Positions 13,305 to 50,961 of a stretch of 64,000 nucleotides of DNA are shown one piece after another (within the stretch, counting starts at the first letter, position 1; every line of letters starts with the position of its first letter). The stretch lies in assembly GCA_010093605.1 (NCBI GenBank), contig MU004184.1, positions 1,374,801 to 1,438,800 of the forward strand. The letters are read 5' to 3'. Both the position numbers and the translations under genes were made by a program. Source of the stretch: Lophium mytilinum (lineage: Eukaryota). Below the pieces are notes generated by a model that saw only the letters and a list, made by a program, of their open reading frames with translations, was not told the origin of the DNA and did not search any database.

Positions 13305-13915
13305 ACTGAAGCTGAATCTGTGAAAAGTCTTTCATACAGTTGAGATTGTAGCTTCTTGAAGAATATCGTTCTGCATCGTGGTCGGAACTTTCTTACAAAA
13401 CACTACTTCATCCTCTCTCTATCTTGGATATACGGTTGAAGTATACGGTCACTACCCAGTTGATGACCACACTTGGTAAATGTGTTTTGGAGTACTTATT
13501 TGCCAAGAGTATTATTAATAGTATAGGCATGGCAGGAAAGCTATGTTAGTTAAAGATAAGTGCTGACTGCAAGAGACATAGGCGCTAGATGGGTACTGTG
13601 TCTATGATGAATGTGGTTACACGGTTTTATCTGTAAGTCTTTGCAACATTAATATCCAGGGCGTAACCGCAGAGGCTTCCCTTCTTCACCGCAACCTGAA
13701 TGCGCTATGCCCATGTAAGGTCTAAGTTAAAATATGTACCTACAAACACACGACTAGGTCTTATATTTCCCGACGTTTGCACCTCGTGTGTAGCGCATTT
13801 TTCTAATCTGACATGATACTGAGTGTTCATTAGATCCACCCAGCGTCTTCTAAAAAGGTGGTTACACGGTTAGATCCGTAACTCTTTCCAACAATTTGAC
13901 CCATTCCGTGGCCTC
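13305..13915 (-). repeat. Array 1 of the ~80-bp fixed-spacing repeat family (3 clear copies, 2 eroded)
   Basis: Minus-strand cores start at 13881 (TTACGGATCTAACCGTGT), 13636 (TTACAGATAAAACCGTGT) and 13351 (CTACAATCTCAACTGTAT). Each has YACG 29 bp upstream and a GAY motif 33-34 bp downstream. Weaker copies at about 13765 and 13447. Confidence 0.8.
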
Positions 13916-15061
13916 GCAGTCTCCATAAATCTCAATCAAGCAAGCAAAACTCATATACTCCATGACTCGGCGCCTAAGAGCAACAGCAAGCCCTCGCAAG
14001 ATCATTACATAGCCCCTTCACGAATTCAAGTTCCATTATCCCACGCAATCAACTCCAGTCTTTCTACCCTACTTCGCTGCACTCCCTCCCTCGCCTTTCG
14101 TCCAACTACACCCATTAGCCCACCATTCTCTACTAAAAACCGCAATTCAGGCAAGGCTAACTCACTTATTCCACATCTTCCCAATGATCCCAGGCTGCCC
14201 GACCTTCTGCTCCCCAAAACTAGCACGCCGCGCCGCCGTATCCGGGTTCCGATTATGTGCAGCGAGATTCGCGAAGAGGGGTTTGGTCACTGAAGACTAA
14301 TATCACTGTCATCACTACCAGGTCGATTTACAGCACGAGAGGTAAGATGGGTGAATTAGGCGTGAAAGGAGCATACCCTCCGCCGCTCACTCGTGCTCTC
14401 CGCAGGCTTGTCCGGGCTCGCTTGGTCGTTTGAGGCCATGTCTATCGCTCTTTATGCTTGAAGTTGTTACTTCAGGGTTCCAATTGAGTTCCGAGGGTGG
14501 CAGGTTATAGAGAGGTGTGCTGTGGTCTCGTAGCTGTGGGACAAAGAGCTGGACTCTCGCGGGCTTTATATCACACCACTGCTCTACCACTAGGAGCTTA
14601 GATCTTGGTAGCTACCCCGCACACGTCACCAGTTGAGCTCTTCGATCAGCAAGGGCCTAATGACAGGAGCGAATCGGGATGCATCGTCGACTACCCGATT
14701 TAGACTAGCGCGGATTGGATGGGTTTGCGGGGTAGCTTTTGTCAGCGGGCTGTGTCCATCTGAGCAGTTGTGGGAATCGAAAGGAGAGAAGCGAGCTACA
14801 CGGTGTAGTGGTCTGACACTTTACGAGGAACCCGTTACAAGGAGAAGATGGGACAGCTTTGATGAAATCTAGATTCGACCAATGCGATTCAATCACATGA
14901 CTACCCACTGCACATTAACTACCCCTTTTCACGTCTACAATCTTTCTTTTCCTTCCCTCATAGGTCCTTGTGAGTATACACCTCCTCCCGAGAAGCTGCT
15001 GTCATCCGCGAGGCGCTGCGCTAGTTGACATCGATCGCAACGAGCTATGTTTAGCTTGATC

Positions 15062-20800: not shown

Positions 20801-23335
20801 ACGCTTGCTAGCGGCAACCAGCAACAAGCTGTTTACAACGCGTTGGCCAAGATCTACATCGACAGCAACAATAACCCGGAGAAGTTCCTGAAGGACAACG
20901 ATCAATACGATTCCTTGGTCGTCGGTAAATACTGCGAGAAGCGTGATCCAAACCTCGCGTATATCGCCTACCGCAAGGGACAGAACGATCTGGAATTGAT
21001 CAGCATCACCAACGAAAATGCCATGTTCAAGGCTCAGGCTCGTTACCTCCTCGAGCGTGCTGATGAGGAAATCTGGCTCTTTGTGCTCAACGACAACAAC
21101 ATGTACAGGCGATCATTGGTTGATCAGGTCATCTCCACTGCCGTTCCAGAATCCCAGGACCCGGACAAGGTTTCCATCGCGGTCAAGGCTTTCATCAACT
21201 CAGATATGCCTGCTGAGCTGATCGAATTGCTTGAGAAGATCATCCTGGAGCCTTCTACCTTCAGTGACAATCCTACCCTACAAAATCTTCTCATGTTGAC
21301 TGCTGCCAAGTCTGACCGAGGCCGAATGATGGGATACATCCAGAACCTGAACAACTACGCTCCGGATGAAATCGCCGCACAGTGCATTGAGCTTGGGATG
21401 TACGAAGAAGCATTCGAGATCTACAAGAAGCACGACGATCATATCAATGCTTCAGGCGTTCTCATTGATCACATCGTCAGCGTCGACAGGGCACAGGAAT
21501 ATGCAGACCGTGTCGATCTTCCCGAGGTGTGGAGTAAAGTAGCCAAGGCTCAACTCGATGGTCTGCGTGTCACTGATTCCATTGAATCTTACATTCGTGC
21601 TGGCGATGCCTCGAATTTCCTCGAAGTCATTGAAATCGGTACACATGCTGGAAAAGATGAAGACTTGATCAAGTTCTTGAAGATGGCGAGGAAGACTCAA
21701 CGCGAGGTGCCAATCGATACCGCGTTGGCTTTTTGCTATGCTCGAACTAATCAGCTTCCCGAGCTCGAGGATTTCCTACGTTCGACTAACACCGCTGATG
21801 TTGAAGCATCCGGAGACAAGGCGTACGAAGAGGGTTACCACGAGGCGGCTAAGATCTTCTACACCAGCATCTCAAACTGGGCTAAGCTCGCGACCACTCT
21901 CGTTCATCTTGAGGAATATCAAGCGGCAGTCGAGTGCGCTCGCAAGGCTAACAGTACAAAGGTCTGGAAACAGGTCAACGAAGCTTGCGTTGCTAAGAAA
22001 GAATTCCGTCTTGCCCAGATTTGCGGTCTCAATCTTATTGTTCACGCTGAAGAGCTTGCCGACCTCGTCCGTCAGTACGAGCGCAATGGCTACTTTGATG
22101 AACTCATTAGCCTTCTTGAGGCTGGTCTTGGTCTTGAGCGCGCCCATATGGGCATGTTCACGGAACTTGGAATTGCTCTATCGAAGTATCACCCCGACCG
22201 TGTCATGGAGCACCTGCGTTTGTTCTGGTCTCGTATCAACATTCCCAAGATGATCCGCGCGTGCGAGGAAGCTCATCTGTGGCCTGAATTGGTCTTCCTC
22301 TACGCTCACTACGACGAATGGGATAACGCGGCACTTGCTATGATGGAACGCTCGTCAGATGCTTGGGAACACCACTCTTTCAAGGATACGATTGTCAAGG
22401 TCACCAACTTGGAGATCTACTACCGCGCGTTGACACACTATCTCGAGCAACAACCATCGCTGCTGACCGACCTACTGCAAGCCCTTACACCTAGGATCGA
22501 CGTGAACCGCGTCGTGCGAATGTTCAAGAACTCGGATAACATCCCACTGATCAAGCCATTCTTGCTCAACGTTCAGCCCCAGAACAAGCGCGAGGTCAAC
22601 AATGCCATCAACGACTTGTTGATTGAGACTCTTGACTATAAGACTCTCCGTGATTCGGTCGAGAATTACGACAACTACGACCCGGTGGAACTGGCGCAGC
22701 GCCTTCAAGGTCACGACTTGGTGTTCTTCCGCCAGATTGCAGCAAACATCTACCGCAAGAACAAGCGGTGGGACAAGTCGATTGCGCTCTCCAAGCAAGA
22801 CAAGCTCTTCAAAGACGCCATCGAGACTGCGGCACTGTCTACCAAGCCAGATGTCGTTGAAGAACTACTCCGCTACGTAAGTTGATTCAACTCCATGAAG
22901 AAAGAACTACCACTAACATTATATCCAGTTCGTGGACATTGGTAGCCGGGAGTGCTACGTCGGCATGCTATATGCTTGCTACGACCTTATTCGCCCTGAT
23001 GTCGTTCTGGAAGTCTCATGGCGCAACGGTCTCAATGACTTCACGATGGTAAGCGTTCACTGCTATTTTTATCGCTATCACAGAGCTGTACTAACAACTA
23101 ATAGCCATACATGATCAACTTCCTGAGCCGACAAGCGGCCACGATTGAAACGCTCAGGATTGACAACGAGGAGCGCAAGGCTCGGGAGGCGTCGCAGCAG
23201 AAGGATGAAGAGAGCACTCCCATCTTAGGCTCTCGGTTGATGCTCACCCAAGGACCAGTGGGTGCCCCGTCCCCAGGCCCGTACGGCCAAGCCAATGGAA
23301 TTGCTCCCCAGCCAACTGGGTACCGGGCTTTCTAA
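17894..23335 (+). CDS. CHC1: Clathrin heavy chain
   Basis: [10 protein letters not shown]...TLESD...[13 protein letters not shown] start and CHCR repeats (e.g. [18 protein letters not shown]). Micro-exons at 17992-18012 (21 nt) and 18076-18102 (27 nt); 7 introns. Confidence 0.99.
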
Positions 23336-24476
23336 ATAAGATACCGCGATAGACCGACAGGGCGGGGCGGGACGTGTCTCGGACGAATGAAAAGCGTGTT
23401 AATTATGCTCACATACCTTCACATTACGGCCCGGGATGGAGTGGGATGGACGGATGGGTTTCTGAGATTTGACGAGGGCGATCGATGGGTTAGGTGGTTG
23501 CATTTGTGCACTAGGCTTCACCCACTACTGTATTTTAGTCTGTTCATCTGCTGATTTCGAATTGCTTTTCCCTCACTCAACATTCTTTGACATGGTACCA
23601 TGGCGGTGAAGCAGACACGCAGTCCACAGGCAAGACATCCCGAGCAATGGGCCGTGAGAAAGCGCAGCCCTAGCGGAGATCAGGCGTCGCAGGCATCAAG
23701 CTAGTGGTCAGGTCCCAATGCGCATATACAGCGCGCATCGCTGCCGACGGCACAATGGACCTGATTTGCTCTGTAAATGACGCTGGCAGGCCCGTTCGCC
23801 GGCTACAGAGCGTTCAAGTGCCAGAAGTTGTCCGGGCGATACCGACACAGACGCCCCGACCTGTTCCGCTGATCCGTCGTGCTGCCGAGCTTGTGTCGGG
23901 ATGCCCCAGATCTGCGCGGAAAAGAGCGTCCTGGGGAAAGCTGTGAGGCGGCGAGACATTGAGGTGTGCTCCCCCACGGTATTGATAGTTGTTGAACCAA
24001 GAGCGTGGAGGGAGACGGGCACGGAGACGACGCAGCTTGGTCACGCCGGCGGCATGAAAAATGAGATGCAGCCGTGGGGAGCACGACAAGACCAATAGCA
24101 TGTCCAGAGGCGTGAGGCAGCTTTATCGAGCGTATTGCTGGGGTCCGATGCGGGAGGGGTAGAATAGGGAGCTCTGGCCAGCTCCTGCCGCCGCCTTGAG
24201 CTTATTCCTTTTGCTCTGTCTGGGTCCACGGTACTCATCAAAAACCCTCAACCGCCGCCTTGATTGTGCACTTTCTCGAGATTCAGTTTGCTCATTCTTG
24301 CTGCCAGAACCACACTCGCGTCCCAAGCTACTCTGCCTACTGTGGGGCACGCTTCCGCGTGAAGTACTTAAGGAACCGGCCCCTCCCCCCTCCAGAGCCC
24401 TCGCACCCCTTCGCCGTCACCACTACCGTCGCAGCCTCGAAACTCTAGCTGCAGCGTCTCTGCCTTGTTGTGCAAT

Positions 24477-27400
24477 ATGTCTGGTCTTGCAATTGACCAA
24501 GCGGCCGCCGCGCAGGCTATCATTGACGACGAGCACGATACCCAGCACGATGAGCATCACATCCACCGGCACTCGGTTCACCACCGGCTGCGGGCAAGCA
24601 GCTCTATCATGCAATTGAAGAAGATTTTAGGCACGCCTCTCTTCTCCTGCACCTCGTCCAGCTCTATGGCTAACATTTTGAAGTTGCCAACCGCGGCGAG
24701 ATCCCAATTCGCATCTTCCGTACCGCCCACGAGCTGTCCCTCCACACCGTGGCCGTCTACAGTCATGAGGACCGCCTCAGCATGCACAGGCAAAAGGCCG
24801 ACGAAGCCTACGAGATTGGACACCGGGGACAGTACACGCCTGTTGGAGCTTACCTTGCCGGCGACGAGATTATCAAAATTGCCCTTGCCCATGAAGTAAG
24901 AATATATTCAACACGGGGACGACGATGTCAAGCTGACCCGAAATAGGTCAATATGATACATCCAGGCTATGGATTTTTATCTGAGAACGCTGAATTTGCG
25001 CGCAACGTGGAGAAGGCAGGTCTCATTGTAAGTCTCACAGCAGCATCTCCTTGTATCGCGTCGGCAGCTCGCAGTGTTTTTGTTGAGGGCGGGGCGGAGT
25101 CCGAGGGGCATACGGCCGCCGGCCCAATTGACGCAGCTCGGCCTGTCTCAGCGGGACCCTTGGCGAGATCGACCGCGTGGGACACAGCATGCCCATTGTT
25201 ACTTTTGCTACGCGTGGACACCTGCTCACCGAATCTAGTTTGTGGGACCGTCCCCCGACACCATTGATGCCCTTGGCGACAAGGTCTCCGCGCGCAGGCT
25301 CGCCGTCAAGTGCGACGTCCCGGTTGTCCCCGGCACCCCCGGGCCGGTCGAGAAATTCGAGGAGGTCAAGGAGTTCACTGACCAGTATGGCTTCCCGATC
25401 ATCATCAAGGCTGCCTTTGGCGGCGGCGGGCGAGGCATGCGTGTGGTCCGAGAGCAGGGAGAACTGAAAGAGGCGTTTGAGCGCGCGACGTCAGAGGCCA
25501 AATCGGCATTCGGCAATGGCACCGTCTTCGTCGAGCGCTTCTTGGACAAGCCGAAGCATATCGAGGTCCAGCTGCTGGGCGACAACCTCGGCAACGTCGT
25601 GCATCTGTACGAACGTGACTGCAGTGTGCAACGCCGGCACCAGAAGGTCGTCGAGCTTGCTCCCGCCAAGGATCTACCCCAGGAGACCCGTGAGGCTATC
25701 CTCAACGACGCCGTCAGGCTCGCCAAATCGGTCAACTACCGCAACGCAGGCACCGCTGAGTTCCTCGTCGACCAGCAGAACCGCTACTACTTCATCGAGA
25801 TCAATCCAAGAATGTAAGTCTCACCGCTCCTCTATAGCCATGCCAAGCTGCTATGCTCCGGAGGTATCACTGCCAAGGTATTGTGTTGCTGATCCATAAG
25901 ACAGCCAAGTCGAACACACCATCACTGAGGAGATCACCGGCATCGACCTAGTCGCCGCCCAGATCCAGATCGCCGCTGGTGCGTCGCTCGAGCAGCTTGG
26001 TTTGACCCAGGACTCCATCTCCACCCGCGGCTTTGCCATTCAGTGCCGTATCACCACCGAGGATCCTGCCAATGGCTTCGCCCCGGACACGGGAAAGATC
26101 GAAGTCTACCGTTCTGCTGGCGGCAACGGTGTTAGGTACGTCTCATCTCGCGCAGTTCATACAGTCCTAGGCCACAAGTCTGGGCACGGGCTCGCTCCAA
26201 CTTGCCCACCCAACACCACTGTTGGGGGTAGCCTGGTTGCTGAGTAGGCAATTAGTCAAGAAGCAGCCTAATCTGCACTGCTTGAAGCTTGACATCGCCC
26301 CTGCGTCTTCGAAACCCTGTGGGGGTACCCCAAGCAGTGGCGGACCAGTGTGCCCAGACGTGTGGCCTGTCACTATAGCTGGCGCAACCCACTAATCTCA
26401 CATCTCGTAGACTGGACGGAGGCAACGGCTTTGCTGGTGCCATTATTACCCCCCATTACGACTCCATGTTAGTCAAGTGCAGTTGCCATGGCTCCACATA
26501 TGAGATTGTACGACGAAAGATGCTTCGCGCCCTCGTTGAGTTCCGTATCCGTGGCGTCAAGACCAACATTCCCTTCCTGATCAAGCTTCTCACCAACCCC
26601 ACTTTCATCGAAGGAACTTGCTGGACCACCTTCATCGACGATACGTAAGTTGCCAAGCTGGCTTGTACTCACACCAGAATTACCACTGACTTCTACTAGC
26701 CCTGCGCTTTTCGACTTGGTTGGCAGCCAGAACCGTGCTCAGAAACTCCTTGCTTACCTTGGTGACCTTGCCGTCAATGGCAGTCAGATCAAAGGCCAGA
26801 TTGGTGAGCCCAAGTTCAAGGGCGAAATCATCATGCCAGTTCCCCACGATTCCAATGGCAACAAAGTCGACACTTCACGGCCTTGCCAGAAGGGATGGAG
26901 GAATATCATCGTCAAGGAAGGTCCTGAAGCCTTCGCCAAGGCGGTTCGAGCAAATAAGGGGTGCCTGGTCATGGATACAACATGGCGCGACGCTCACCAG
27001 TCGCTCTTGGCCACCCGTGTCAGGACTGTTGACATGTTAAACATTGCCACAGAGACCAGCCACGCCTACAGCAATGCTTGGGCACTTGAGTGCTGGGGTG
27101 GAGCTACTTTCGACGTAGCCATGCGATTCTTATATGAGGATCCGTGGGACAGACTGAGGAAGATGAGGAAGCTTGTACCCAACATCCCCTTCCAGATGCT
27201 TCTCAGAGGTGCCAATGGTGTTGCGTATTCATCGTAAGTGTCACGTGCTTTCGCGATTCTCACGTGCTAACAATTATAGGCTTCCCGACAATGCCATCTT
27301 CCACTTCTGTGAGCAGGCAAAGAAACAGTACGTAAGCCCCCAATATAGATAACCGGTTTCCCAGCAATATTTCTGTTTGAAAACTACTCAGAGAGTATTC

Positions 27401-29317
27401 CAAGGCAACCACTGTCCACTGTACGCCACTGCTTGGGGTACCCCCATAGGTTTCGAAGACTTGAGGGCGATGTCAAAGTTCAAGCAGTGCATATTAGACT
27501 GCCTCTTGACTGATTGCCTGCTCAGCAGTCAGGCTTACCCTAACAGTGGTGTTAAGTGGGTAAATTGGACAGTGGTGTCTTGGAATTCCCTAAAGGAGTG
27601 TTTTACGCAGCATAACTTGTCCTTAATATCGGTTTCCTTACTCTGGTTTTGAAAAATTTGCTGACTTTATTGCCACCTTAAGCGGAGTCGATATATTCAG
27701 GGTATTCGACGCCCTCAACGATGTTGACCAGCTGGAAGTCGGTGTCAAGGCCGTCCTTAAGGCTGGTGGTGTGGCTGAAGGCACCGTCTGTTATTCGTAA
27801 GACCCTGATTACCCTTACATCCTGAACAGCCTACTGACTGGTTTGTAGCGGTGATATGCTGAACCCCAAAAAGAAGTACAATCTTGAGTACTACATGAAC
27901 GTGGTCGACAAGATTGTAGGCATGGGTGCACACGTTTTGGGCATCAAGGACATGGCCGGTGTCCTAAAGCCCAGGGCTGCTACCTTGCTTATTGGAGCTA
28001 TCCGAAAGAAGTATCCGGATCTTCCAATCCACGTCCACACCCATGACTCTGCCGGTACTGGTGTCGCCTCCATGGTTGCCTGCGCTTATGCTGGCGCTGA
28101 TGCTGTGGACACAGCGATTGATTCGATGAGTGGTATGACTTCCCAGCCCAGCGTTGGCGCCCTCCTGGCTTCCCTCGAGGGTACTGATCATGACCCTGGT
28201 CTCGATGGACACATGGTCAGGCATCTGGACAGCTACTGGGCACAGCTCCGCCTGCTGTACTCTCCCTTCGAAGCCGGTCTTACTGGCCCCGATCCCGAAG
28301 TCTACGAGCATGAAATCCCTGGTGGACAGCTTACCAACCTCATCTTCCAGGCCTCGCAACAAGGTCTTGGCGAGCAATGGGCCCAAACTAAGAAGGCTTA
28401 CGAGCAAGCCAATGACCTCCTCGGCGATATTGTCAAGGTCACTCCCACCTCCAAGGTTGTCGGCGACCTGGCCCAGTTCATGGTCTCGAACAATCTCTCC
28501 TATGACGACGTGCTCGCAAAGGCCGAGCAACTCGACTTCCCCTCCTCCGTCCTCGAGTTCTTCGAGGGCCTTATGGGCCAGCCCTACGGCGGATTCCCCG
28601 AGCCCCTCCGCTCGCAGGCCCTCCGTGACCGCCGCAAGATGGATAAGCGCCCCGGCGCTTACCTCGAGGCTGTCGATCTCGTGAAGGTTAAGGCTGACCT
28701 TAAGTCCAAGTGGGGCGATGCCACCGAGTGCGACGTCGCGTCGTACGTCATGTACCCCAAGGTCTTTGAGGACTACAAGAAGTTCACGACGAAGTACGGC
28801 GACCTCTCTGTTCTGCCGACACGCTACTTCCTCGCCCGTCCTGAGGTTGGAGAGGAGTTCCACGTCGAGCTGGAGAAGGGCAAGGTGCTTATCCTCAAGC
28901 TTCTTGCCATCGGCCCATTGAGCGAGCAGACTGGGCTGAGGGAGGTGTTCTACGAGATGAACGGCGAGGGCCGAACCGTCACAGTCGAGGACCAGCACGC
29001 GGCGGTTGAGAACGTCAGCAGGCCGAAGGCCGATCCGACGGATAGCAGCCAAGTCGGCTCGCCAATGGCTGGTGTGGTCGTTGAGGTGCGCGTACATGAC
29101 GGCTCGGACGTCATGAAAGGAGATCCGATTGCTGTGCTCAGTGCTATGAAGATGGTAAGTTCTCTCACAATCATTCCAGCTAGCTTGACAAAATGCTTAC
29201 ATCAATTCACAGGAAATGGTCATCTCGGCACCGCACTCCGGCAAGGTCAGCAACCTAGGCGTGCGCGAGGGCGACTCAGTCGGCGCGCAGGACTTGGTGT
29301 GCAAGCTTGTCAAGTAA
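24477..29317 (+). CDS. PYC1: Pyruvate carboxylase
   Basis: [29 protein letters not shown] and the biotin site AMKM. Ten introns: 24631-24683 (GC-AG), 24896-24946, 25028-25238, 25814-25904, 26136-26410, 26645-26699, 27234-27279, 27328-27682, 27797-27848 and 29155-29212. Confidence 0.99.
26136..26410 (+). mobile_element. Introner-like intron, family B (PYC intron 5, 275 nt)
   Basis: Inverted repeat AGGCCACAAGTCTGGGCAC (26169-26187) / GTGCCCAGACGTGTGGCCT (26350-26368), 18 of 19 matching. Homologous to the MFS intron at 50256-50578 and to the insert in PYC intron 8. Confidence 0.8.
27328..27682 (+). mobile_element. Introner-like intron, family A, carrying a nested 161-nt insert (PYC intron 8, 355 nt)
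   Basis: Ends GTACGTAAGC...TGCCACCTTAAG align end to end with the MFS intron at 49494-49293. The insert at 27412-27572 is homologous to the family B core. Confidence 0.9.
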
Positions 29318-30453
29318 ATGGATGGCTAATTTTTAGCACGGTGAAAACTTCAACAGCGCTGCGCTCGGTTGTTGGATTGAGGTTTATGTTGGTACGATAT
29401 TGATGCGCTAGGGTGTGATGATTGGTAGTCGGTTGAATTGACCGCCGCGGGTCTGGTTATGTAGCTAGTTCTATAACGATATGAAGATCCTTATTCATAC
29501 AGTACTTGACTCTTGGCAGGGCTCGTTGGACTGAAGGTGGTAGTCTATGCTGACACCGTCTGAGGTGGCCCGAAGAGCTATCTGGCTTGTCCGAATCACC
29601 TTTTTCCCATTCACGATGCAATACCAGGGGACCTCAAGCGGTGCCAGACATGTGTACATACGTAACACCAAAGCAGGTTTAGATCTATTCTATCGCAGAT
29701 CTTAGAAAATAATCACCCATTGGCGCATTGCCACTGCTTGTTCGACAAACCCTGCGAGGGTTGCTGTTGGTATGTTGAGGCGGCCTGGCTCCTGCTTTAC
29801 GCACTTTGACGCAGCTGTAATCACTTCTTTTTCTATAGTCTAATCTGATGTGAGATGGATGATCCCATGATGGTATACTGATTCACAAGCTTCGTGAACC
29901 CAAATTCTTAGATGGCAGTATAAATGTGCACGGAGTGGCTCCCGTACGTTCAGATTAACGATGATGCTTTACCTGTTAATTTATATACTGATTGAGGATG
30001 TCTGTCCCACAACCCGGCCTCCGCAATCCGATTTAGCCTCCTTATAGAAAGCACTACGTTTGGGCTTGATTCTCGCTCTCTTCTAATACCATGCTGAAAG
30101 GATGTCCTAATCGCACAGACTGGCTCACGTTGATTCATCTTTGCGGCGTCCGTGTTGTTTCAGAGCTGTGATCTCAGGAGAAACGCCTATCGATACAGGT
30201 CCACTGTCGAACGATATCAAGTCAAGGCCTGATTTCCACTCTCTTTCAATGTAATGCTTACATCGCGTTGAAAAAGCGCGGAATGGCCTCCATACACCCA
30301 AACGCGCTAGAACATAATTCATATCAGATCTAACTGCTAAACTATCTCGCAACAAGCCGTGTCTTAACTACAACCAATGCAGCTCCTCTAATCCTACAAC
30401 CAAGTCACACCGCAACCACGATAAAACCACGGTTCCAATTCCATCACTAGCAA

Positions 30454-30665
30454 ATATGTGCACACCGTTTTAGTCCGCAAGCCCACTGAACCCAGGAACG
30501 CAAGCAGGTCTGAAATAACAGGCGCCGTCCGCCCCCGAACAACCCCACAGAGCAGGGAGACTTCCCCTTGCGGGGTTCCTCACTTCCGCTAAGGGGGGGC
30601 AGGGTAACGAGCGTTGATCTTGCGCGTGTGCGAAATCGCACAGAGGTAAAGCGTCGGCCAACATG
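30454..30665 (-). ncRNA. Candidate structured box H/ACA-type RNA (snR30/U17-like layout)
   Basis: 5' hairpin TGTGCG/CGCACA, H-box-like AGATCA (30620-30615), a long G:U-rich hairpin capped by CCCC-GCAA-GGGG, a 3' segment with TTCCTG...TAAAAC, and ACA at 30459-30457. The 5' end is uncertain. Confidence 0.45.
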
Positions 30666-31006
30666 GGGAGGAGTTGGAGACGCTTTGGTGTGTGTAGACC
30701 CGCGCTGGGTTGGGAGCATAGAGGGAGATAGGGAAGATGAGGGACGGGAGCACTAACAGGGTGGAGGAATGGGGGGATCTGTTATAGGTAAAGGGTGACT
30801 TGGTAGTTGAGAAGGCGGGGTAGTTTTAAAGGATGTTGAAAGTGTCATGTGTAGATAGAAGATTCGTATTGAGCGCTTGCGATGCTGGAAACCCTAGATG
30901 ACGCCTGCTATGCTGGTGAGTAGAGTACAAGTTATATACAACATCTAAATGCGTGTGCATCTTTTATACATGCCAACGAAAGGAAAATCGTGAACGGAAT
31001 ATAATT

Positions 31007-34000
31007 TTATTCCTCTGGCGACTGTGCAGTGATTTCTTTGATCTTGTCGGCCATGCCTAGGTCACGTATGTCCCACCCAGCTTCTTTGGTGGCCCAGTCT
31101 TTGCGTTCACCTAGGATGGCGAGGTTGCTGCGCGAAGCACCCTGTACGAGGTACTTGTCCGCTACCGCCTTGATCTGTTCGGCGGTGACGTCGAGGAGAA
31201 GCTCTCTCCGCCTTTGGAGCATGTCGTCGTCGATTCCAGAGAGGAAGAGTCGCATGCCCTCCTGGCTGACGCTCTGTGGCGCGTCATAGCCCTGGAAGAC
31301 GCTCAGCTTGGCCTCTTCCAGGTCTTGAGCTGTCCAGGTGCGATCGCGGGCCCAGGCGCCGGCTTCAGTCATGATCTTGATGGTGTTTTGGGGGTTCGGA
31401 TCACGATAGCTGTAGTAGCCAAATACGCCGCCGAGGGACCGGCTATAAGCCCCACCTCCATACGCACCGCCCTTCTCACGAATCTCGTGATGTAGATGCT
31501 TGTGAGTCAGGAGCTGAGCTAGAATCTCCAGCGGAGCTCCTGCGTCATTGGTATATGGTACAGTGGGAATGGCGAGACCAGCATAGTAGACCTGATATGG
31601 TAGGGGAAAGAACGATTTGGAGTTTCGGGGGTACTGTATTGGTTCAGAGGTTGAGGTGACGTTAGAAGATTCGGTCGGTAGCCCAGTCAAAAAGCGTTGC
31701 AAGGCCTCCTGGTTTGACGTTGAGCTCTCATTCCCGCAGTTGAGAGCTACCCGAAATGTCTTGCTATTGGAGATGGCAATGGACTGTATGGCCTTCAACT
31801 TCTGTATAACGTCATCCAGTGACTCTGAAACGGGACGCGATGCTAGACCAGTGGTGAGTTTGATCTGTGACAGGCCACCCGTCTGCTCGTTCAGGCGTCC
31901 AATCGGAGTCAATCCAGCCTCTGCAAACGTGCGAGCAAAAGAGTGACCGGTTTCTGCAATGGAATTGACAGCTCCACTTGCAGAACTCTGGAGTAGTTCC
32001 CGGATCTGCTTTTCTGCCTCAGATCCGTCGAAATCTGTCTCGAAGATGACTGTCCGAAGTAGGTCATACATTGCGGGCACGTTTCGATCTAATGCATAGC
32101 CAGTGAAAGAAAGACCTTCCTGGTACGACTCCACAGAATCCGGAGAAGGCGAGGAATGATAGCCAACGGATATCCCGCCAGTCTTGAGCTTAATCAACTC
32201 TTCGAGCTGTTCCATAGTCTTGTCTTTGGTGCCAAGTCGCATTATCGCGCTGCTGAATAAAGGGATCATTTCTCGTAGCTCATCCGGGAGATTATCGAGT
32301 TGCTGGATAGCCCGGAAATAGGTCAGGCCGTTGGTGTGAGCTTCCCGCCACTGGACCTTCACATCGCCTAGGGAGCTGTGTCGAACTTCTTTCCTTTCTT
32401 TTTGACGAGGTATGTCTTTGACATGCACACTTGGGAGGCAGCTGAGATCTGCATTTCTTGCAGTCTCTTGGACCTCTAAGAGTTCGAGCTCTCGCTTCTC
32501 TAGGTATTGTTCGGCCTCTTCTTTGCTTGAGAATTTCTCTGTGGCCTCGGAAATTTTATCCACAAGTCGCTGGCTCTCTTCGGCAACTAATTCTTCGCTG
32601 TATGTTTCCGATGGCTCCATGGTGAAGGTGAGCGTGTTGTCGTTTAGTAGATACTTATCGAGTAGACTCTCAAGATAGCCTCCCTTGGCATAACTGTTTT
32701 GGAAAGCGGAGACAGTTTCTTGCCAGGCTAAAGCATCCATCGGGTCGACACCGTTGAACCAGCCAGGTTGTAGTCTCTGCATGACACCCATACCAAAATG
32801 GGCCGTCTTATGCTTCAAGGAAAGCTCAAGCTGATGTAGGATACCGTCAACTTTGATTTTATCGAACCCGTTTGTCCTGGCTTCCGCAAATGTTTTGGCG
32901 ATCGCTTCTTTGACTTTAGGAACGTCTTCCGCCTTGACACCATTTAACCCAACGGAGAAAACGCCAACTTTTCCAGCACTATCATACCCAGTGTTTGGGC
33001 TGAAATCTGCACCAAGCCCTGATTCAATAAGGTTGCGATAGAATGGCGAACCGTAACCGTCGAGCAAAAGGTTACTCAATAGTCCTAGAGAGAAGTTTTC
33101 AAGAACATCCGTAGTGTCTCCCATGAGCCATGTGGTGGAGGTCTTGTATTGCATATCTGGCGGCATGAGGAGATCTGTCGGTCCCTTGACCGTGACAAAC
33201 TTCGGACCATCATCCAGACTTATTGGCGCTTTAATGTCGCTGTCCACTTGTATTTGGCTGAATTGACCTAATCTAGCATCGATTTCTTTGAGATGGTCGG
33301 CCAGTGGGAGGTCGCCATATGTGAAGACCTTTGCATTGCTCGGATGGTAGTGGTCTGCGTGGAACTTCCGCAATTGCTCCCATGTGAGATCGGTAATCTT
33401 TTGTGGGTCGCCGCCCGAATTGTTGATATCTGGAAAGAGGTGGTCCTGGAATCTGATATAGAACAGATAGCTCGCATCCGACATTTGGCCCTTCATTTCG
33501 TTGTAGACAACGCCTTTGAAGACCAGTTTCTTTTCCTCTCCCCCTCCTCCTGATGCGACTGCTAAAGGGTTCTCGGGGCCTATTCGCCATCCCTCCTGCG
33601 TGAAGTCGTTTGAGTTGAGTAACGGATGAAGAGTCGCATCGAGATATACCGACATCAAGTTCCTGAAGTCTTGCGCATTTGTGGTGGCGAAAGGATAGGA
33701 AGTATGATCGGCGGAAGTGAAGGCGTTCATGAAATTCGACAGTGACCGAGGAAGCATCTTGAAGAAGGGATCGCGAACGGGGTATCTAGAGTTCGTTTAG
33801 CGTGTATTCACAGGGTTATGAAGAGTGCACCAACTTCTCGCTGCCACAGAGGGTAGTATGTTCCAAGATGTGCGGAACCCCAGTATCATCCGGTGGATTC
33901 GTCTTGAAGCCGATGGAGAAGACATTGTTGGAGTCGTCGCGGGCGATGTGGAGGTAGTCGGCACCGGTTTTGTCGTGCTGAAGCTGGAAAGCCGTGAGCT

Positions 34001-34184
34001 CCAGCTCAGGGACCTGTTTGACGCGCTTGAGAGTGAAGCCATGAAGTTGTTCTCCGATTTTTGGCTGGCCGGAGACATCGCTCACTGCGGCAAATCCTCG
34101 ACGGAATGGACGGCCCGTCGAGAGTCTCGAGGACGGCGCAGCAATGCGCGACGCCCATAGAGATGATCGAGAGCACCGAAGCAT
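31007..34184 (-). CDS. CYM1: Mitochondrial presequence protease (M16C pitrilysin family)
   Basis: [11 protein letters not shown] inverted zinc motif, GVVYNEMKG and IREKGGAYG, with an Arg/Ser-rich presequence. Intron at 33834-33786. Confidence 0.97.
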
Positions 34185-35104
34185 GGCAAACTCGTAGATG
34201 TGAAGTATTGACAGCGTGAAGAAAAGAATCGCGGGAGCATGACGCGATGTAGTGGGACTCGAAATCGTAGAGTGACGAGGGGCCGGAAGTTACGGGTGCA
34301 TAAGATGCTGAACCTGCATAGCGCTTCCCGAGCAGCCTCGAACGCCCGCCATAGCCCTTCTAGTTTAAGAAGTACTATTGCTTTAACGGCTGTTATATTG
34401 TAGAGATGTATATAGCGGAATAAGTGTCTTGCTTAGTATATAGCTGTAAGCTTATATCTTTGTAAACTTATAGGTTCTATACTGGCTAGTTAGAAATATG
34501 TAATATTACGTAATTATTACTTTATGGGGGCCTCTTAAACGGTGTATCGAATTGACTTCAGCCTGGAATCAAGACGACTGGACGAGGAATCGCTATTTGG
34601 ATGGGATATAAGGACTCTAGTCAATCTGCTACTGCTCTGAGAAGCGTGTCGCCTTGTTGCTCTTGCGGGTGGCCTGGTTGTCAAGTGAAGCATCTCATCA
34701 CCCCTTGGTTCAGACTGAAGTCTCTTGCCGAGCGCCCTCTCCACTCCGATCGTGCACTGTTGGTCTTGTCGCAAGTCTTTCCTCACCTGCATGCGACCCC
34801 CAATAGAGCAACGATTCTTCTCTCCCGCTTCTCCTCTCGTGTTGAAGCTTCCATTCTTACCGCACGACGAGCTTCAGTGCGCCATCGAGGACTCAGCTTC
34901 ACCCTTCAACCCGACGACTCCGAGAAGCCCGAACAACATCACGACGCCACCCTCCCGCCAAAGCTTCTAATCCGCCCGGCCTGTTGCTTGGTCCTATGTG
35001 AACATCGACACGCTGCCACTGAAGGCTGTTGGGTGTTGAATCTGGGCGGATTGCAGACGTCATTTGGGTCTGCAAATTGAAGTCCTAGATTCGGGTCTAA
35101 GCAT

Positions 35105-36943
35105 ATGGCGACCGTCGCCCATCAACACCAAGCAACATCTGCACACGCTCGCTCAAGCCCCGGTCATGTTATGGAGAGCAGCCGCAACTCTTCCATCTCC
35201 CGCGAACCCTCCGCGTCGTCAGCTCCCATGGCTTCCCATCAGCACGCCACTCCTGCGGGAGCCCCCCCTCCGAAGAAAGGGAAGGGCAAGAAAAGCACGG
35301 ACCCGTTAGAGCAGCAGAAGCAGATCCAGGCGAAGATCGCGCAGTTGGAATCCGATGCTGCGGGTGACAAGGAGCAAGATGCTGAAATTGGTGGGTGCTG
35401 TTCCGTTGGTTGACCCCATCTATTCAACGCCTGGGTACTCTGGTAGCGAGTCTCGCGCCGTGGTTGAAAAACCGCAATTTGCGACAGTCCCATAGTTCCC
35501 AGTTTTGCAACCAAGGAGCGTTTAACTTGATAGACATGTATGGCTAATATGTTATGATCTCAAATAGAGCGCGAAGTCAAGAAGGCGAATCGAGACCTAT
35601 CCCACCTCCTGTCAACCATGGAAACGCCAATGTCGCGCCTTGAAGTTGTCCAGAAGAAATACACCGAGTTGCTTCAGGACATGAAACGGACGGAGCGAGA
35701 TCATATCAAGGCCAAGAAGCGGGGAGATCAGTTGCAAAAGGAGAAAGATGCTGGGAGGACGGAGCTCAACAGGGTCACGACAATGAAGGACAAGCTCGAG
35801 AAGCTGTCCCGCGACGTAACTAAGGACAACAAGAAGCTGAAAGTTAGTGGGAATCGGCCTTTGCGTGGATTTGACGTGGCCATACGCTTATTGAACCCAG
35901 GATGAATATCACAAGCTCGAAACGAACGAATCCAAGGCTCGCGCAGAGCTGCATGCCAGGCTTGAGGCTATGGTAGCCAATGTGGACGATGTCATCAATT
36001 CACAGGGCCAGCCCGAAGCCCAGGATCTAAATATGGAACTTGACGATTTGTACGCCCTCTCGACCCTGGATCTGCAGGACTCTACTAAACGTTCCCCAGA
36101 TTTCGCCAGAAATTCAAGTCATTCATTGACCAATACGAATTACGGGAGCTTCAGTTCCACTCTCTCCTCCGAACGAAGGAACTCGAAATCCAATATCAGA
36201 TGGCGCGGCTGGATCAACAGCGCAAAGCTCAAGAAGTGGAATCTTCCAAATCCCACCAATTGACAAGACAGGTATCCACTTTCTCCCAAACAGAGTCCGA
36301 ATTGCGTACTCAGCTAAACATCTATGTTGAAAAGTTCAAGCAGGTAAGGTATCCACCATTTAGCCCTGCTGTCCTCGTTTTTCAGCATATAGAGGTTAAT
36401 GCTGACCAGATGCAGGTCGAAGAAACCCTCAACAATTCCAACGATTTATTTCTGACGTTCCGAAAGGAAATGGAGGAGATGTCTAAGAAGACGAAGCGCC
36501 TCGAGAAGGAAAACCACAACCTGACCAGGAAACAGGAAGCGACGAGCCGAAACATACTTGAGATGGCCGAAGAGCGAACTCGAGCCCAGAAAGACATGGC
36601 TAGGAAGGACAAGGAGATGGAGCTTCTGCGCAAGAAGAACGAGAATCTAGAGAAGCTCTGTCGCGGGATGCAAGCTCAAGGTCGTGGACAAGTCAACGTG
36701 AATGATTTGGACGCATATGACGAGGAAGGTACGGAAAGCGAATATGCGTATGAGGATGACGATGACGAAGAAGTCAGTGGAGAGGAAGATGATGAAACAG
36801 AGGAAGATGTCATAGATCCTCCAGAACGCCGACCATTTGGTCCGGTGCCACCACCTCCGCCCCCACCACAGAATCTTGTGAATGGGGGGAAAGTCAATGG
36901 TCACAGGCAGACCAACGGACAGGTCAATGGCATCAAGCGTTGA
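35105..36943 (+). CDS. Taxilin-family coiled-coil protein
   Basis: KDKLEKLSR, ELRTQLNIYVEKFKQVEETLNNSNDLFLTFRKEMEEMSKKTKRLEKEN and LEKLCRGMQ. Four introns, the first at 35391-35567. The start codon is uncertain. Confidence 0.9.
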
Positions 36944-48628: not shown

Positions 48629-50961
48629 TCAAAGCTTCAATTGGAACCTCGGATTTGTCCGAATTCGCTCACCGTATATCTTAAAGATAACGGGGACGGG
48701 GATCAAGGCAAGGGCAACGAAGCCTAGAAGGGAATTACCCCAGCCAAGACCGAGCTTGTTGTACATTGATAGACCTGCTAGAGGAAGTAGAGCACCGAAG
48801 ATGGAACGGATGACCGTATTGGCGGCCATCGCGGAAGCAGCGTGCAGAGTAAAGGCATCAACGAGGTAAGTTTGGATGGTCAGCTGTGAGAAATCCGTTA
48901 GCTAAGCCCACTGCTATAATTGAAGAGTGTTCACTCGGAAGGACACATACAAAGTTGCTCAGCATTCCTATTCCGACAAACGATGTACCAATGAGTGGGA
49001 CAATCCAGTGGACGTGTTTATCTGTTCCCCAGCCGTACATAAAGAGCCCGACGGGCAAGCAAATGCCGCCAGGAACAGTCAATATCATTGGCAGCCGATC
49101 TTCCGGCTTCAGAGCCTTGCCCTTCGCCTTCTGTCTCTTGAGGACTCGATCGCTAGCAACACCTAGAATGGCGAGGCCGAGAATCATACCTATGCCAGTG
49201 GCAATGTAGGTAAGTCCGACTGTTCCAGACGAGAAATGATAGTTTTCTTCAAAGACAAAGGTGATGGTCGTGAACAGGAGGTAGAGTATGCCCTTAAGGT
49301 GGCAGTAAAGTTAGCAAATATTTCAGAACCAGAATGAGGAAAACGATATCGACTTCTTGAAACAACTGTCGCGTGAGACACTTCTTCGGGGGATTCCAAG
49401 ACACCAATATGGTTGTCTCAGAATACTCCCTGAGTAAGTTTTCAAACGAACAAATTGCTGGGAAAGTTTTCATCTTTATCGTGAGCTTACGTACGTACGC
49501 AACGGCCGAGTAAAAGGACATGCAAAAGACGATAGGTGATGTCAGGAGCATCTTCGTGGGCCGCACAATGCTGAGACGGAACAGCTCCTTCGGCGAGATG
49601 GGTGACGTGAGCTTGGATCGGAGATTCGGGTTTCCGGTCTCTTTTCGAAGCCTTGCGGCTTTTCGTTCCAGGATTACGGGTGCGTACGTCTCCCGCAAGA
49701 AGACGAAAGCTAGAATAGTGACAACACCGCCCTGTGCGCCAGTGTTAGTATAAGGGGAAATGAAAAAGTAATCGGAAATAGGCTCAGATAAAACATACCA
49801 ATATCGCGATTAGGTAGAATACCCATCGCCATCCTTTTGCTTGTACTAGAAAACCCCCAATTACTGGCCCCACTACAGGTCCTATGAGTGGGCCCATAGC
49901 CCATATAGCCATGGCGCCGCCTCGTTTTTCCACGGGCATCAAGTCTGCGATCGTTCCGCCTCCAATCGTAAGAGGGGCAGATCCGACTGAGCCTTGAAGG
50001 AATCGGAATCCGACAAGCATGTTGAAGTTGCTCGACACTCCACAGGCAATAGTGAAGATGATGAAGAGTATGTTGCAGGCATGGTAGATCCACCTTCGGC
50101 CGTAGAGTTCACTCAGAGGTGCGACAATTAAAGGTCCGAACGCGAAGCCGAGCAGGAAGACGGATACGACGAAGGCTGCAAGAAGGTCTGATTTCTCGTG
50201 AAAGCCAGCCATGACTTCAGGGACGCCAGGGGCGAACATAGAGGATGCGAGAGGGCTGATGAGGTCAGCTGTAGCTCTGACTGGGAATAATAGTACTGGG
50301 CCGTAAGTCTGAGCACACGGTTTTATCACCGCTCAGGTAGCACTCCTAACAGATGAACGCCACTTCGTCGCTTTCGGTTGCAAGCTAGAACGAGATGACA
50401 CTGTCAAGAGGCTACCCGTTGCCAAAGAGCCGGTCTGTCAAGATGCAGCCCGGATTCCATTTCTTGAGAGTTGAGATCGCGTCTAGATTTTATGGAACCC
50501 ACAGGAGTGCCTCGAGCAGCGGCAGGCAAGTGTACAAAGACTCGTGGCTTGTTATGAACGAGGATGGAATGTACTCACGTCACGAAGGTGATAGATGAGA
50601 GAATGGCGATATTTCCCCACTTCAAACCATTCGAAAAGTTCATAGGGTTCTCTGGATCATTTGGGCCGTCCCAAAATATCACATTCGGGTCTGATTCCTC
50701 GGCACCCTCCTCTGGCAGCTTCTCTGTTGTATCCCCCGCATCGTCTATCTCCCCGCTAGACGTGGTGGGATGGCTGATTGCACCTTTTTCGAGGTCGCCC
50801 TTTTCGTGGTCGTGAATTGACGAGCGCTGTCCTGGGGTGTAGACACCTAGATTGGAAGGTACGTCCGCATCGTGGCCTTCTTCGTAGGCAAGCTCGAGCC
50901 TTGGGTTATCAAGGTCATGAATGTGATACGCCGGATTTGAGTAGGAGCCAGGAGTCGCCAT
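48629..50961 (-). CDS. MFS drug:H+ antiporter (DHA1 family)
   Basis: [28 protein letters not shown] and ETYAPVIL motifs. Four introns, including 50578-50256 and 49494-49293. Confidence 0.96.
49293..49494 (-). mobile_element. Introner-like intron, family A, empty form (202 nt)
   Basis: GTACGTAAGCTC...CTTTACTGCCACCTTAAG with a central hairpin GAGACAACCA-TAT-TGGTGTCTT. Homologous to PYC intron 8. Confidence 0.9.
50256..50578 (-). mobile_element. Introner-like intron, family B (323 nt)
   Basis: Nested stems GCCACGAGTCT..GTACAC / GTGTGC..AGACTTACGGC and GCACTCCT / AGGAGTGC. Plus-strand 50399-50555 is collinear with plus-strand PYC intron 5. Confidence 0.75.

Follow-up and report, generated by a model that had tools for sequence, protein, structure and literature searches.

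A mosaic intron in the pyruvate carboxylase gene of Lophium mytilinum: a repeat interior at the tip of an introner-like hairpin

Ascomycete introners carry neither terminal repeats nor target duplications, and how they are copied is not known (PMC9860276, PMC3609843). Whether sequence is gained or lost at introner hairpins bears on the choice between a DNA and an RNA intermediate. Intron 8 of the pyruvate carboxylase (PYC) gene of Lophium mytilinum raises this question. The gene lies in a stretch of 64,000 nucleotides (nt) of contig MU004184.1 (assembly GCA_010093605.1, positions 1,374,801 to 1,438,800, forward strand), here called the window, whose numbering is used throughout. We found that intron 8 is a true mosaic, in which the arms of one repeated intron (family A) hold the interior of a different repeat (family B), set mirror-symmetrically at the hairpin tip. 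How did that interior come to be there, and was it gained by intron 8 or lost from its relative?

Composite structure and splicing of PYC intron 8

By blastn within the window, intron 8 matched an intron of an MFS transporter gene in two blocks. Positions 27328–27411 aligned with 49494–49410 (78.8% of 85 columns, E = 2e-14; 17 mismatches in 84 aligned positions) and 27573–27682 with 49406–49293 (75.4% of 114 columns, E = 4e-17), and the similarity spans both introns from GT through AG. Between these family A blocks lie 3 nt (TAT, 49409–49407) in the short copy versus 161 nt (27412–27572) in intron 8. A preliminary description of this DNA had placed a 161-nt insert where an empty copy reads AACCA-TAT-TGGTG, and its coordinates and counts hold by blastn. 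Within the insert, 27417–27569 matched the reverse complement of 26196–26350 in PYC intron 5 at 84.5% of 155 columns (E = 3.5e-43), with 22 mismatches over 153 aligned bases and 2 gap columns, in agreement with the identity of about 85% given earlier. No further copy of family A or B was found within the window by blastn at E ≤ 1.

A complete PYC gene is present in the window. The annotated L. mytilinum protein P0129 (1197 aa) aligned to it by tblastn as ten exon-sized pieces, six of them 100% identical and the remainder extending beyond the exon ends into introns; the gaps between these pieces were counted to number the introns, and the numbers 5 and 8 used in the preliminary description proved correct. 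One PYC exon was identical to P0129 at 438/438 residues, with one gap column at the splice boundary, and matched a Mytilinidion resinicola protein at 435/439 residues. The expected PYC domains were recovered with Pfam. On the downstream exon of the second host gene, MFS_1 scored 31.8 bits, under the Pfam cutoff of 33.4.

Contigs from four public runs were aligned to 25800–28000 at ≥80% likeness. Contigs of run X3, which belongs to a different study from the assembly and is presumed to be RNA, have exons identical to the window and join 26132/26408, 26644/26700, 27233/27280, 27327/27683 and 27796/27849, all at GT..AG. Introns 5 and 8 are therefore both precisely removed. At least one X3 contig also covers 27298–27682. 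In contigs of relatives (runs X4 and X5), three PYC introns have visible joints, and all three are spliced out; breaks in the coverage of the A arms by these contigs were left out of account. The splice signals of intron 8 read GTACGT...TGCTGAC...AG. At 355 and 202 nt, intron 8 and the MFS intron are long in comparison with three neighbouring PYC introns of 46, 52 and 55 nt. The introns and the parts of the composite are as follows.

27328–27682, plus strand: PYC intron 8, 355 nt, the filled composite; placed by the exon map and the X3 joint 27327/27683, GT..AG
26136–26410, plus strand: PYC intron 5, 275 nt; placed by the exon map and the X3 joint 26132/26408 read 3 bases rightward
49494–49293, minus strand: intron of the MFS transporter gene, 202 nt, the short (empty) family A copy, with its loop TAT at 49409–49407
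27328–27411, plus strand: family A 5' part, with the 5' splice site module and the left hairpin arm
27412–27572, plus strand: insert at the hairpin tip, 161 nt, of which 27417–27569 is the reversed B interior
27412–27572, plus strand: ends of the insert, a 7-bp inverted repeat CTGTCCA / TGGACAG
27573–27682, plus strand: family A 3' part, with the right hairpin arm, the branch site TGCTGAC and the 3' splice site
27409–27422, plus strand: tandem CCACTGT x2, at the left joint
27543–52 (within the core) and 27569–78 (over the right joint), plus strand: two copies of the direct repeat ACAGTGGTGT

The mosaic is predicted to fold as a single structure. A perfect 11-bp stem crosses the joints (ACCACTGTCCA at 27408–27418 and TGGACAGTGGT at 27566–76), as had been described, and was extended to 17 nt at 88% by an inverted-repeat search. 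Intron 8 RNA is predicted to form one long hairpin with the insert at its tip (−114.1 kcal/mol, z −4.65; 0/100 shuffles as stable). For the MFS intron the same hairpin is predicted with a 3-nt loop (−45.8 kcal/mol, z −1.29; 19/200 shuffles as stable).

Beside the tip, the two A copies have the same right-arm sequence (27573–27586 / 49393–49406). The left arm (27395–27411 / 49410–49424) differs at three sites, each of which can still pair solely as G-U. Preservation of the RNA fold, and not of a DNA palindrome, is hinted at in this way, by three sites only.

PYC intron 3 (25028–25238) is also long, at 211 nt. It was considered as a further introner and rejected, with no family A or B similarity by blastn and a fold z of +1.68 (folded from 25029).

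Family B, the joints and other composite copies

The interior carried by intron 8 belongs, in intron 5, to a larger unit with ends of its own, whose features are these.

26160–26377, strand unassigned: family B element with TA flanks, TA-CAGT...ACTA-TA, 218 nt including the flanks
26160–26187 and 26350–26377: family B terminal inverted repeats, 28 nt, 82% complementary
26196–26350, minus strand: B interior in common with intron 8, from the blastn match

The X1 records considered cover 8 of 544 aligned pieces, 15 of 56 joints and, for loose ends, 24 of 311 rows. Among the rows listed, loose ends of X1 contigs pile up at 26160 (14), 26374 (35) and 26377 (7), and not at the intron ends. TA stands at 26160–61 and at 26376–77, the other B copies being known as a consensus and not individually; because that consensus begins G-TA past 26374, the family end reads ...ACTG and then TA. 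The inner 19 nt of the B terminal repeats match at 18/19. Since the copies end at TA-flanked inverted repeats, we take B to be an element lodged in intron 5 that resembles a miniature inverted-repeat transposable element (MITE). Summed contig depth reaches 22,600–36,900 over 26170–26391 versus 155–177 in the single-copy flanks (130–230x), a rough index and not a copy number. As DNA, B folds with a z of −4.53. Subtracting B from intron 5 leaves an intron of ~60 nt that keeps its own GTACGT, CACTAAT and TAG. Neither an Rfam match (E ≤ 1) nor a tRNA was found in a search of the core for known RNA such as a small nucleolar RNA or a tRNA-derived short interspersed element. Family B is a high-copy, TA-duplicating, MITE-like element inside an ordinary intron, and not an intron family. 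Intron 8 had been described as a chimera of two intron families; the A/B mosaic is real, but B is not an introner, as contig matches end inside intron 5.

Family B is common to more than one species, as it is also matched by three contigs from a related organism (X4). Genome contigs contain B variants with internal deletions of 74–76 nt (joints 26241/26243->26318) and a variant with a 71-nt internal duplication (27557->27487), and one contig holds two B copies 2.3 kb apart. One and the same frame stays open across the B core in each of the two copies in the window (26167–26391, minus strand, 74 codons; 27353–27652, plus strand, 99 codons). We take this open frame to be chance or a remnant of the element's origin.

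Eight local alignments of the A arms against the B flanks and terminal repeats gave no similarity, 39 to 499 of 500 shuffles scoring as well. The idea that the A arms are diverged B terminal repeats was rejected on these shuffles, a resemblance of the form AGGC.AC.C..GTC being not significant. The B part in intron 8 starts 8 nt inside the left repeat boundary and ends at the right repeat boundary. Neither TA..TA nor any other direct repeat was found at 27411/27412 and 27572/27573, and B terminal repeats are likewise missing there. The absence of B repeats and of direct repeats at the insert rules out both a nested transposition of the simple kind and a cassette equipped with ends of its own. 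A mobile cassette that targets introner loops, which had been proposed earlier, is unlikely for an insert that has neither B inverted repeats nor a target duplication.

The palindrome runs unbroken from the A arms over the joints into the B inner arms (31/34 columns). The joint motifs are ..ACCA / TGGTGT.. at the A tip and ..CCACTG / CAGTGGTGT.. on the B inner arms, and the tandem CCACTGT x2 spanning the left joint leaves an uncertainty of a few bases in the A/B breakpoint. A possible source that was considered for the CTGT/ACAG of the joints is palindromic addition of the P-nucleotide kind. Mirror-symmetric breakpoints at microhomologies are what fits a break at the palindrome centre, followed by copying from another palindrome or by loss of the tip.

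The composite is not confined to PYC. Record 6 of X1, a 13.7-kb contig, covers 27392–27682 with 33 mismatches and one 1-nt gap. It holds the end of the A 5' arm, the entire core and the entire A 3' arm, and its likeness to intron 8 is lost right at the 3' splice site. In two X1 contigs the A 5' arm has one additional A following 27379; for record 6, the first difference listed is at 27420.

When the 99-aa frame open across intron 8 was used as query in an exhaustive search, eight matches came from 1.84 billion representative proteins. Two were accepted, at 81–82% identity: P0003 (61 aa, KAF2502549.1) and P0006 (96 aa, KAF2500190.1), both annotated as L. mytilinum hypothetical proteins. By tblastn against the window, P0003 begins at an ATG inside the core, its residues 1–28 matching 27470–27553 at 89%. 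Residues 25–61 match 27568–27678 at 68%, that is, the whole A 3' arm up to a TAA overlapping the 3' splice site. These two pieces overlap at NSGV, encoded by ACAGTGGTGT, and lie 98 nt apart in different frames. The P0003 locus thus lacks 26 nt between direct repeats, since NSGV/ACAGTGGTGT is evidently present once there and twice in intron 8. Record 6 is without the 26-nt gap, and the two are therefore different loci. In P0006 the core is followed by unrelated sequence, the likeness ending after ACAGTGGTGT. Both proteins are probably annotation artefacts, translations of repeat copies. The B-core frame is likewise open in P0003 and P0006, and the regions of the window that correspond to such repeat translations are 27470–27553 and 26212–26295.

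Among the remaining matches, inspection of the sequences led to the rejection of P0002 and P0005, which match through a bacterial repeat bearing the motif ..FVNWTV.., and of the tandem repeats P0001 and P0007. P0004 and P0008 were set aside on the match table alone as long proteins aligned in short stretches (5 at 46% identity and 14 at 31%, respectively). A word-indexed protein search with the same 99-aa frame gave no candidate. Metagenome scans with a family A 3' end pattern and with a B-core 20-mer returned 0 matches each; one match of the 20-mer in a bacterial chromosome (L001), from a scan of prokaryote genomes, was taken as chance.

The composite is present at a minimum of three loci: PYC, record 6 and P0003. 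At PYC the extra 161 nt are compatible with splicing, taking X3 as the RNA it is presumed to be, and composites stand at at least two other loci. Depth over the A arms is 1,365–2,231 versus 160–177 for single-copy sequence (~8–13x), which suggests ~8–20 copy-equivalents of family A at ≥80% likeness, depth not being a copy number.

Over the last 33 nt of intron 8 (27650–27682), depth is ~20x single copy versus 8–13x over the arms; this 3' splice module may be common to more introns or families than the A arms are. In one contig each of X1 and X3, the match covers the first 25 nt of intron 8, breaks off and resumes at 27455 in the core. This joint (27352/27455) may mark another composite variant, or a copy with a diverged 5' arm.

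Two lines of inquiry were dropped. States shared by the intron 8 and P0003 cores (D15, S20) are too weak as proof of a single origin, since another B subfamily reads SS (27511). A count of filled and empty copies from depth at 27411/27412 was abandoned because B-type contigs and the tandem CCACTGT make that depth ambiguous. Elsewhere in the window, a 68-nt direct repeat (13610–13677 / 13855–13922, 71% identical, 245 nt apart) lies in a region that appears non-coding or intronic.

Gain or loss at the hairpin tip

In either direction, one recombination must have joined an A-type frame to a B interior, and its product spread to at least three genes. Our tentative preference, to which we give somewhat short of an even chance, is that the composite is an A hairpin that captured a B interior and went on to multiply as an intron. 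A short-looped A hairpin, such as that of the MFS copy, would break or stall at its centre, and the gap would be filled by copying from a B element. Joints would form at short motifs shared by the A tip and the B inner arms. The composite would then multiply as an intron, and later copies would lose pieces of the tip through small direct-repeat deletions. Gain rather than loss, and repair as its mechanism, are what we infer from the joints and from sequence divergence. Descent of both A copies from a filled form would lead one to expect a core no less diverged than the arms. Divergence of the core from the intron 5 B copy is p = 0.144 (22/153), and that of the arms between intron 8 and the MFS intron is p = 0.21 (41/194), rising to 0.25 (35/140) when the hairpin parts are taken by themselves. 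Fisher tests of the contrast give p = 0.12 over all arm positions and p = 0.027 with the hairpin parts only. The lower divergence of the core weakly favours capture.

Several observations weigh against capture. The divergence contrast is not significant on all arm positions, and the split that gives significance, on hairpin parts only, was chosen after the data had been seen; the argument moreover presupposes the same rate of change in the core as in the arms and an absence of gene conversion involving B copies. The copies found number three filled versus one empty, a count biased toward filled copies, as reads were taken at ≥80% likeness to intron 8 (the MFS copy falls below this) and the protein query included the core. 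The joint expected of an empty copy, 27411->27573, is not among the best 15 of 56 joints. Internal loss is seen in both families (26 nt in P0003, ~75 nt in B). The microhomologies are just 3–6 nt long, and the TAT of the empty loop is explained by neither direction. We considered the CATATT at the centre of the insert as the source of that loop and rejected it; its T is private to intron 8, since the B copy and P0003 read CAGATT.

The same evidence lends real weight to deletion, a possibility we take seriously without judging it probable. On this account the filled form is original, the MFS intron is a cropped derivative without its hairpin tip, produced by a break at the palindrome centre with end joining or by slippage, and the A/B mosaic dates to the origin of family A. 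In its favour stand the three filled loci against one empty, and the 26-nt loss in P0003, between 10-nt direct repeats at the core/arm joint, which shows a tip being eroded. B copies with ~75-nt deletions (26241/26243->26318) also exist. ILEs (introner-like elements) are reported to degenerate fast in length (portions of PMC3609843), and symmetrical introns of Hypoxylon yield centrally deleted, cropped introns that proliferate (portions of PMC8469720). The fold of the MFS copy does not surpass those of shuffled sequences (z −1.29), as expected of a degenerate copy. Yet the core differs from a B copy at 14% of sites, less than the 21–25% that separate the arms of the two A copies, and the borders have no direct repeat that would leave AACCA-TAT-TGGTG. 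The empty copy keeps a clean stem reaching its 3-nt loop. Deletion also still requires one A/B recombination for the common core.

Other routes to the same mosaic carry less weight. Reverse transcriptase copying a spliced or unspliced RNA of an A intron could have switched to a B-containing RNA and back at short shared motifs, the complementary DNA then being fixed by recombination. The seamless placement of family A is in keeping with this, with 0 shared bases at 27327/27683 and no target duplication, a pattern read in parts of PMC9860276 and PMC3609843 as suggestive of RNA intermediates for the introners of ascomycetes. Introns that contain B, PYC intron 5 among them, are transcribed along with the genes that host them, and the three tip-side differences in the arms keep pairing only via G-U. 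A reverse-transcription step is nevertheless without direct evidence here, and RNA template switching and DNA repair cannot be separated by sequence because both predict the same joints; we consider recombination at the RNA level improbable. We hold it very improbable that a whole B element transposed into the loop TA (CCA-TA-TTGG) and later lost its terminal repeats and TA duplications. B is abundant and evidently was once mobile, the empty loop does contain the TA that B duplicates, and the insert ends CTG..CAG could be the inner ends of B repeats (CTGGGCAC / GTGCCCAG). Such a history, however, needs two mirror-image deletions of ~20–30 nt that removed both repeats and both TAs, and the outer repeat left no trace. 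Record 6 crosses both joints with one 1-nt gap, and so would have the same trimmed ends.

A collapsed or mis-joined repeat that put a B fragment into intron 8 during assembly can hardly account for the data. The X1 contigs listed do stop at 27409 and start again at 27506, within the repeat. On the other side, record 7 of X1 is free of mismatches from 27506 in the core over the right joint into the downstream PYC exon, although it is not independent support because X1 may be the source of the assembly. Record 6 has arm, core and arm in one contig at another locus, the X3 contig from a different study spans 27298–27682, and the independently annotated P0003 reads from the core into the A arm.

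The composite, with its mirror-symmetric microhomology joints at the hairpin tip and its spread to several genes, shows that such hairpins recombine with other palindromic repeats. A broader form of the capture reading is hairpin-tip exchange, in which ascomycete introner hairpins break centrally and are repaired by copying palindromic repeats. We regard this generalization as rather doubtful, and the same doubt attaches to its candidate routes, through DNA cruciforms or through stalled replication or reverse-transcription intermediates. If it were true, introners would pick up MITE modules and still multiply as introns, and the joints described here would be a first structural footprint of an intermediate step in fungal introner mobility. 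Ascomycete introners, which lack target site duplications (TSDs), would also be linked to the DNA-transposon world of other introners. If the short copy is a plain deletion, the locus would record ordinary introner decay and an old chimeric origin.

Introners, miniature elements and palindromes in comparison

Fungal ILEs of Dothideomycetes were described by van der Burgt et al. (2012), whose work is summarised in parts of PMC3609843 and PMC4457414. Family A is like them in that the repeat unit is the whole intron from GT to AG, found in unrelated genes, and in its canonical splice signals, with splicing shown at PYC intron 8 on the presumption that X3 is RNA. It is also several times longer than neighbouring introns and has a long predicted hairpin, unusually stable in intron 8 but not in the short copy. 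As in ascomycete introners (described in part of PMC9860276), no TSD and no terminal inverted repeat (TIR) is found at the intron ends; the flanks of the two window copies, the two examined for target duplication, share nothing. Copy number appears low, at roughly 8–20 equivalents by contig depth for family A, ILEs having tens to hundreds of copies per genome. Judged by sequence features, family A appears to fit the description of fungal ILEs apart from this modest copy number. No ILE carrying part of another transposon family, and no mention of L. mytilinum introners, was found in the full-text literature searched, though supplementary tables may list them. The words nested, chimeric and hairpin were absent from the introner papers searched for such terms.

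Family B resembles Stowaway-like Tc1/mariner MITEs in its length of ~214 nt, its 28-nt TIRs starting CAGT and its TA on both sides. We assign the Tc1/mariner label on the assumption that TA and CAGT ends are typical of that group. High copy number, internal-deletion variants and relatives in a related species are further points of likeness. The insert in intron 8 departs from the usual nesting of MITEs in that it consists of the interior only.

A parallel for long and short forms is found among the Hypoxylaceae, in which Fekete et al. (2021) describe symmetrical sister stwintrons and type-2 cropped introns (sections of PMC8469720). In Hypoxylon the central region is lost through microhomology-mediated joining, and both long and cropped forms proliferate (same sections). 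Like those introns, family A proliferates, has long inverted repeats, is placed seamlessly without target duplication and occurs in long and short forms that differ in the central region. There is, however, no sequence relationship between them, and family A has no twin-intron structure. The centre of the Hypoxylaceae introns is native and a 10-nt repeat marks the deletion, whereas in family A the centre is foreign and no repeat marks the 161-nt difference.

Long DNA palindromes in yeast and mammals undergo rearrangement by breakage at the centre and templated repair. Intron 8 is similar in its mirror-symmetric breakpoints and short homologies, and by analogy only, a break at the centre of the family A hairpin may have been where the B interior was joined.

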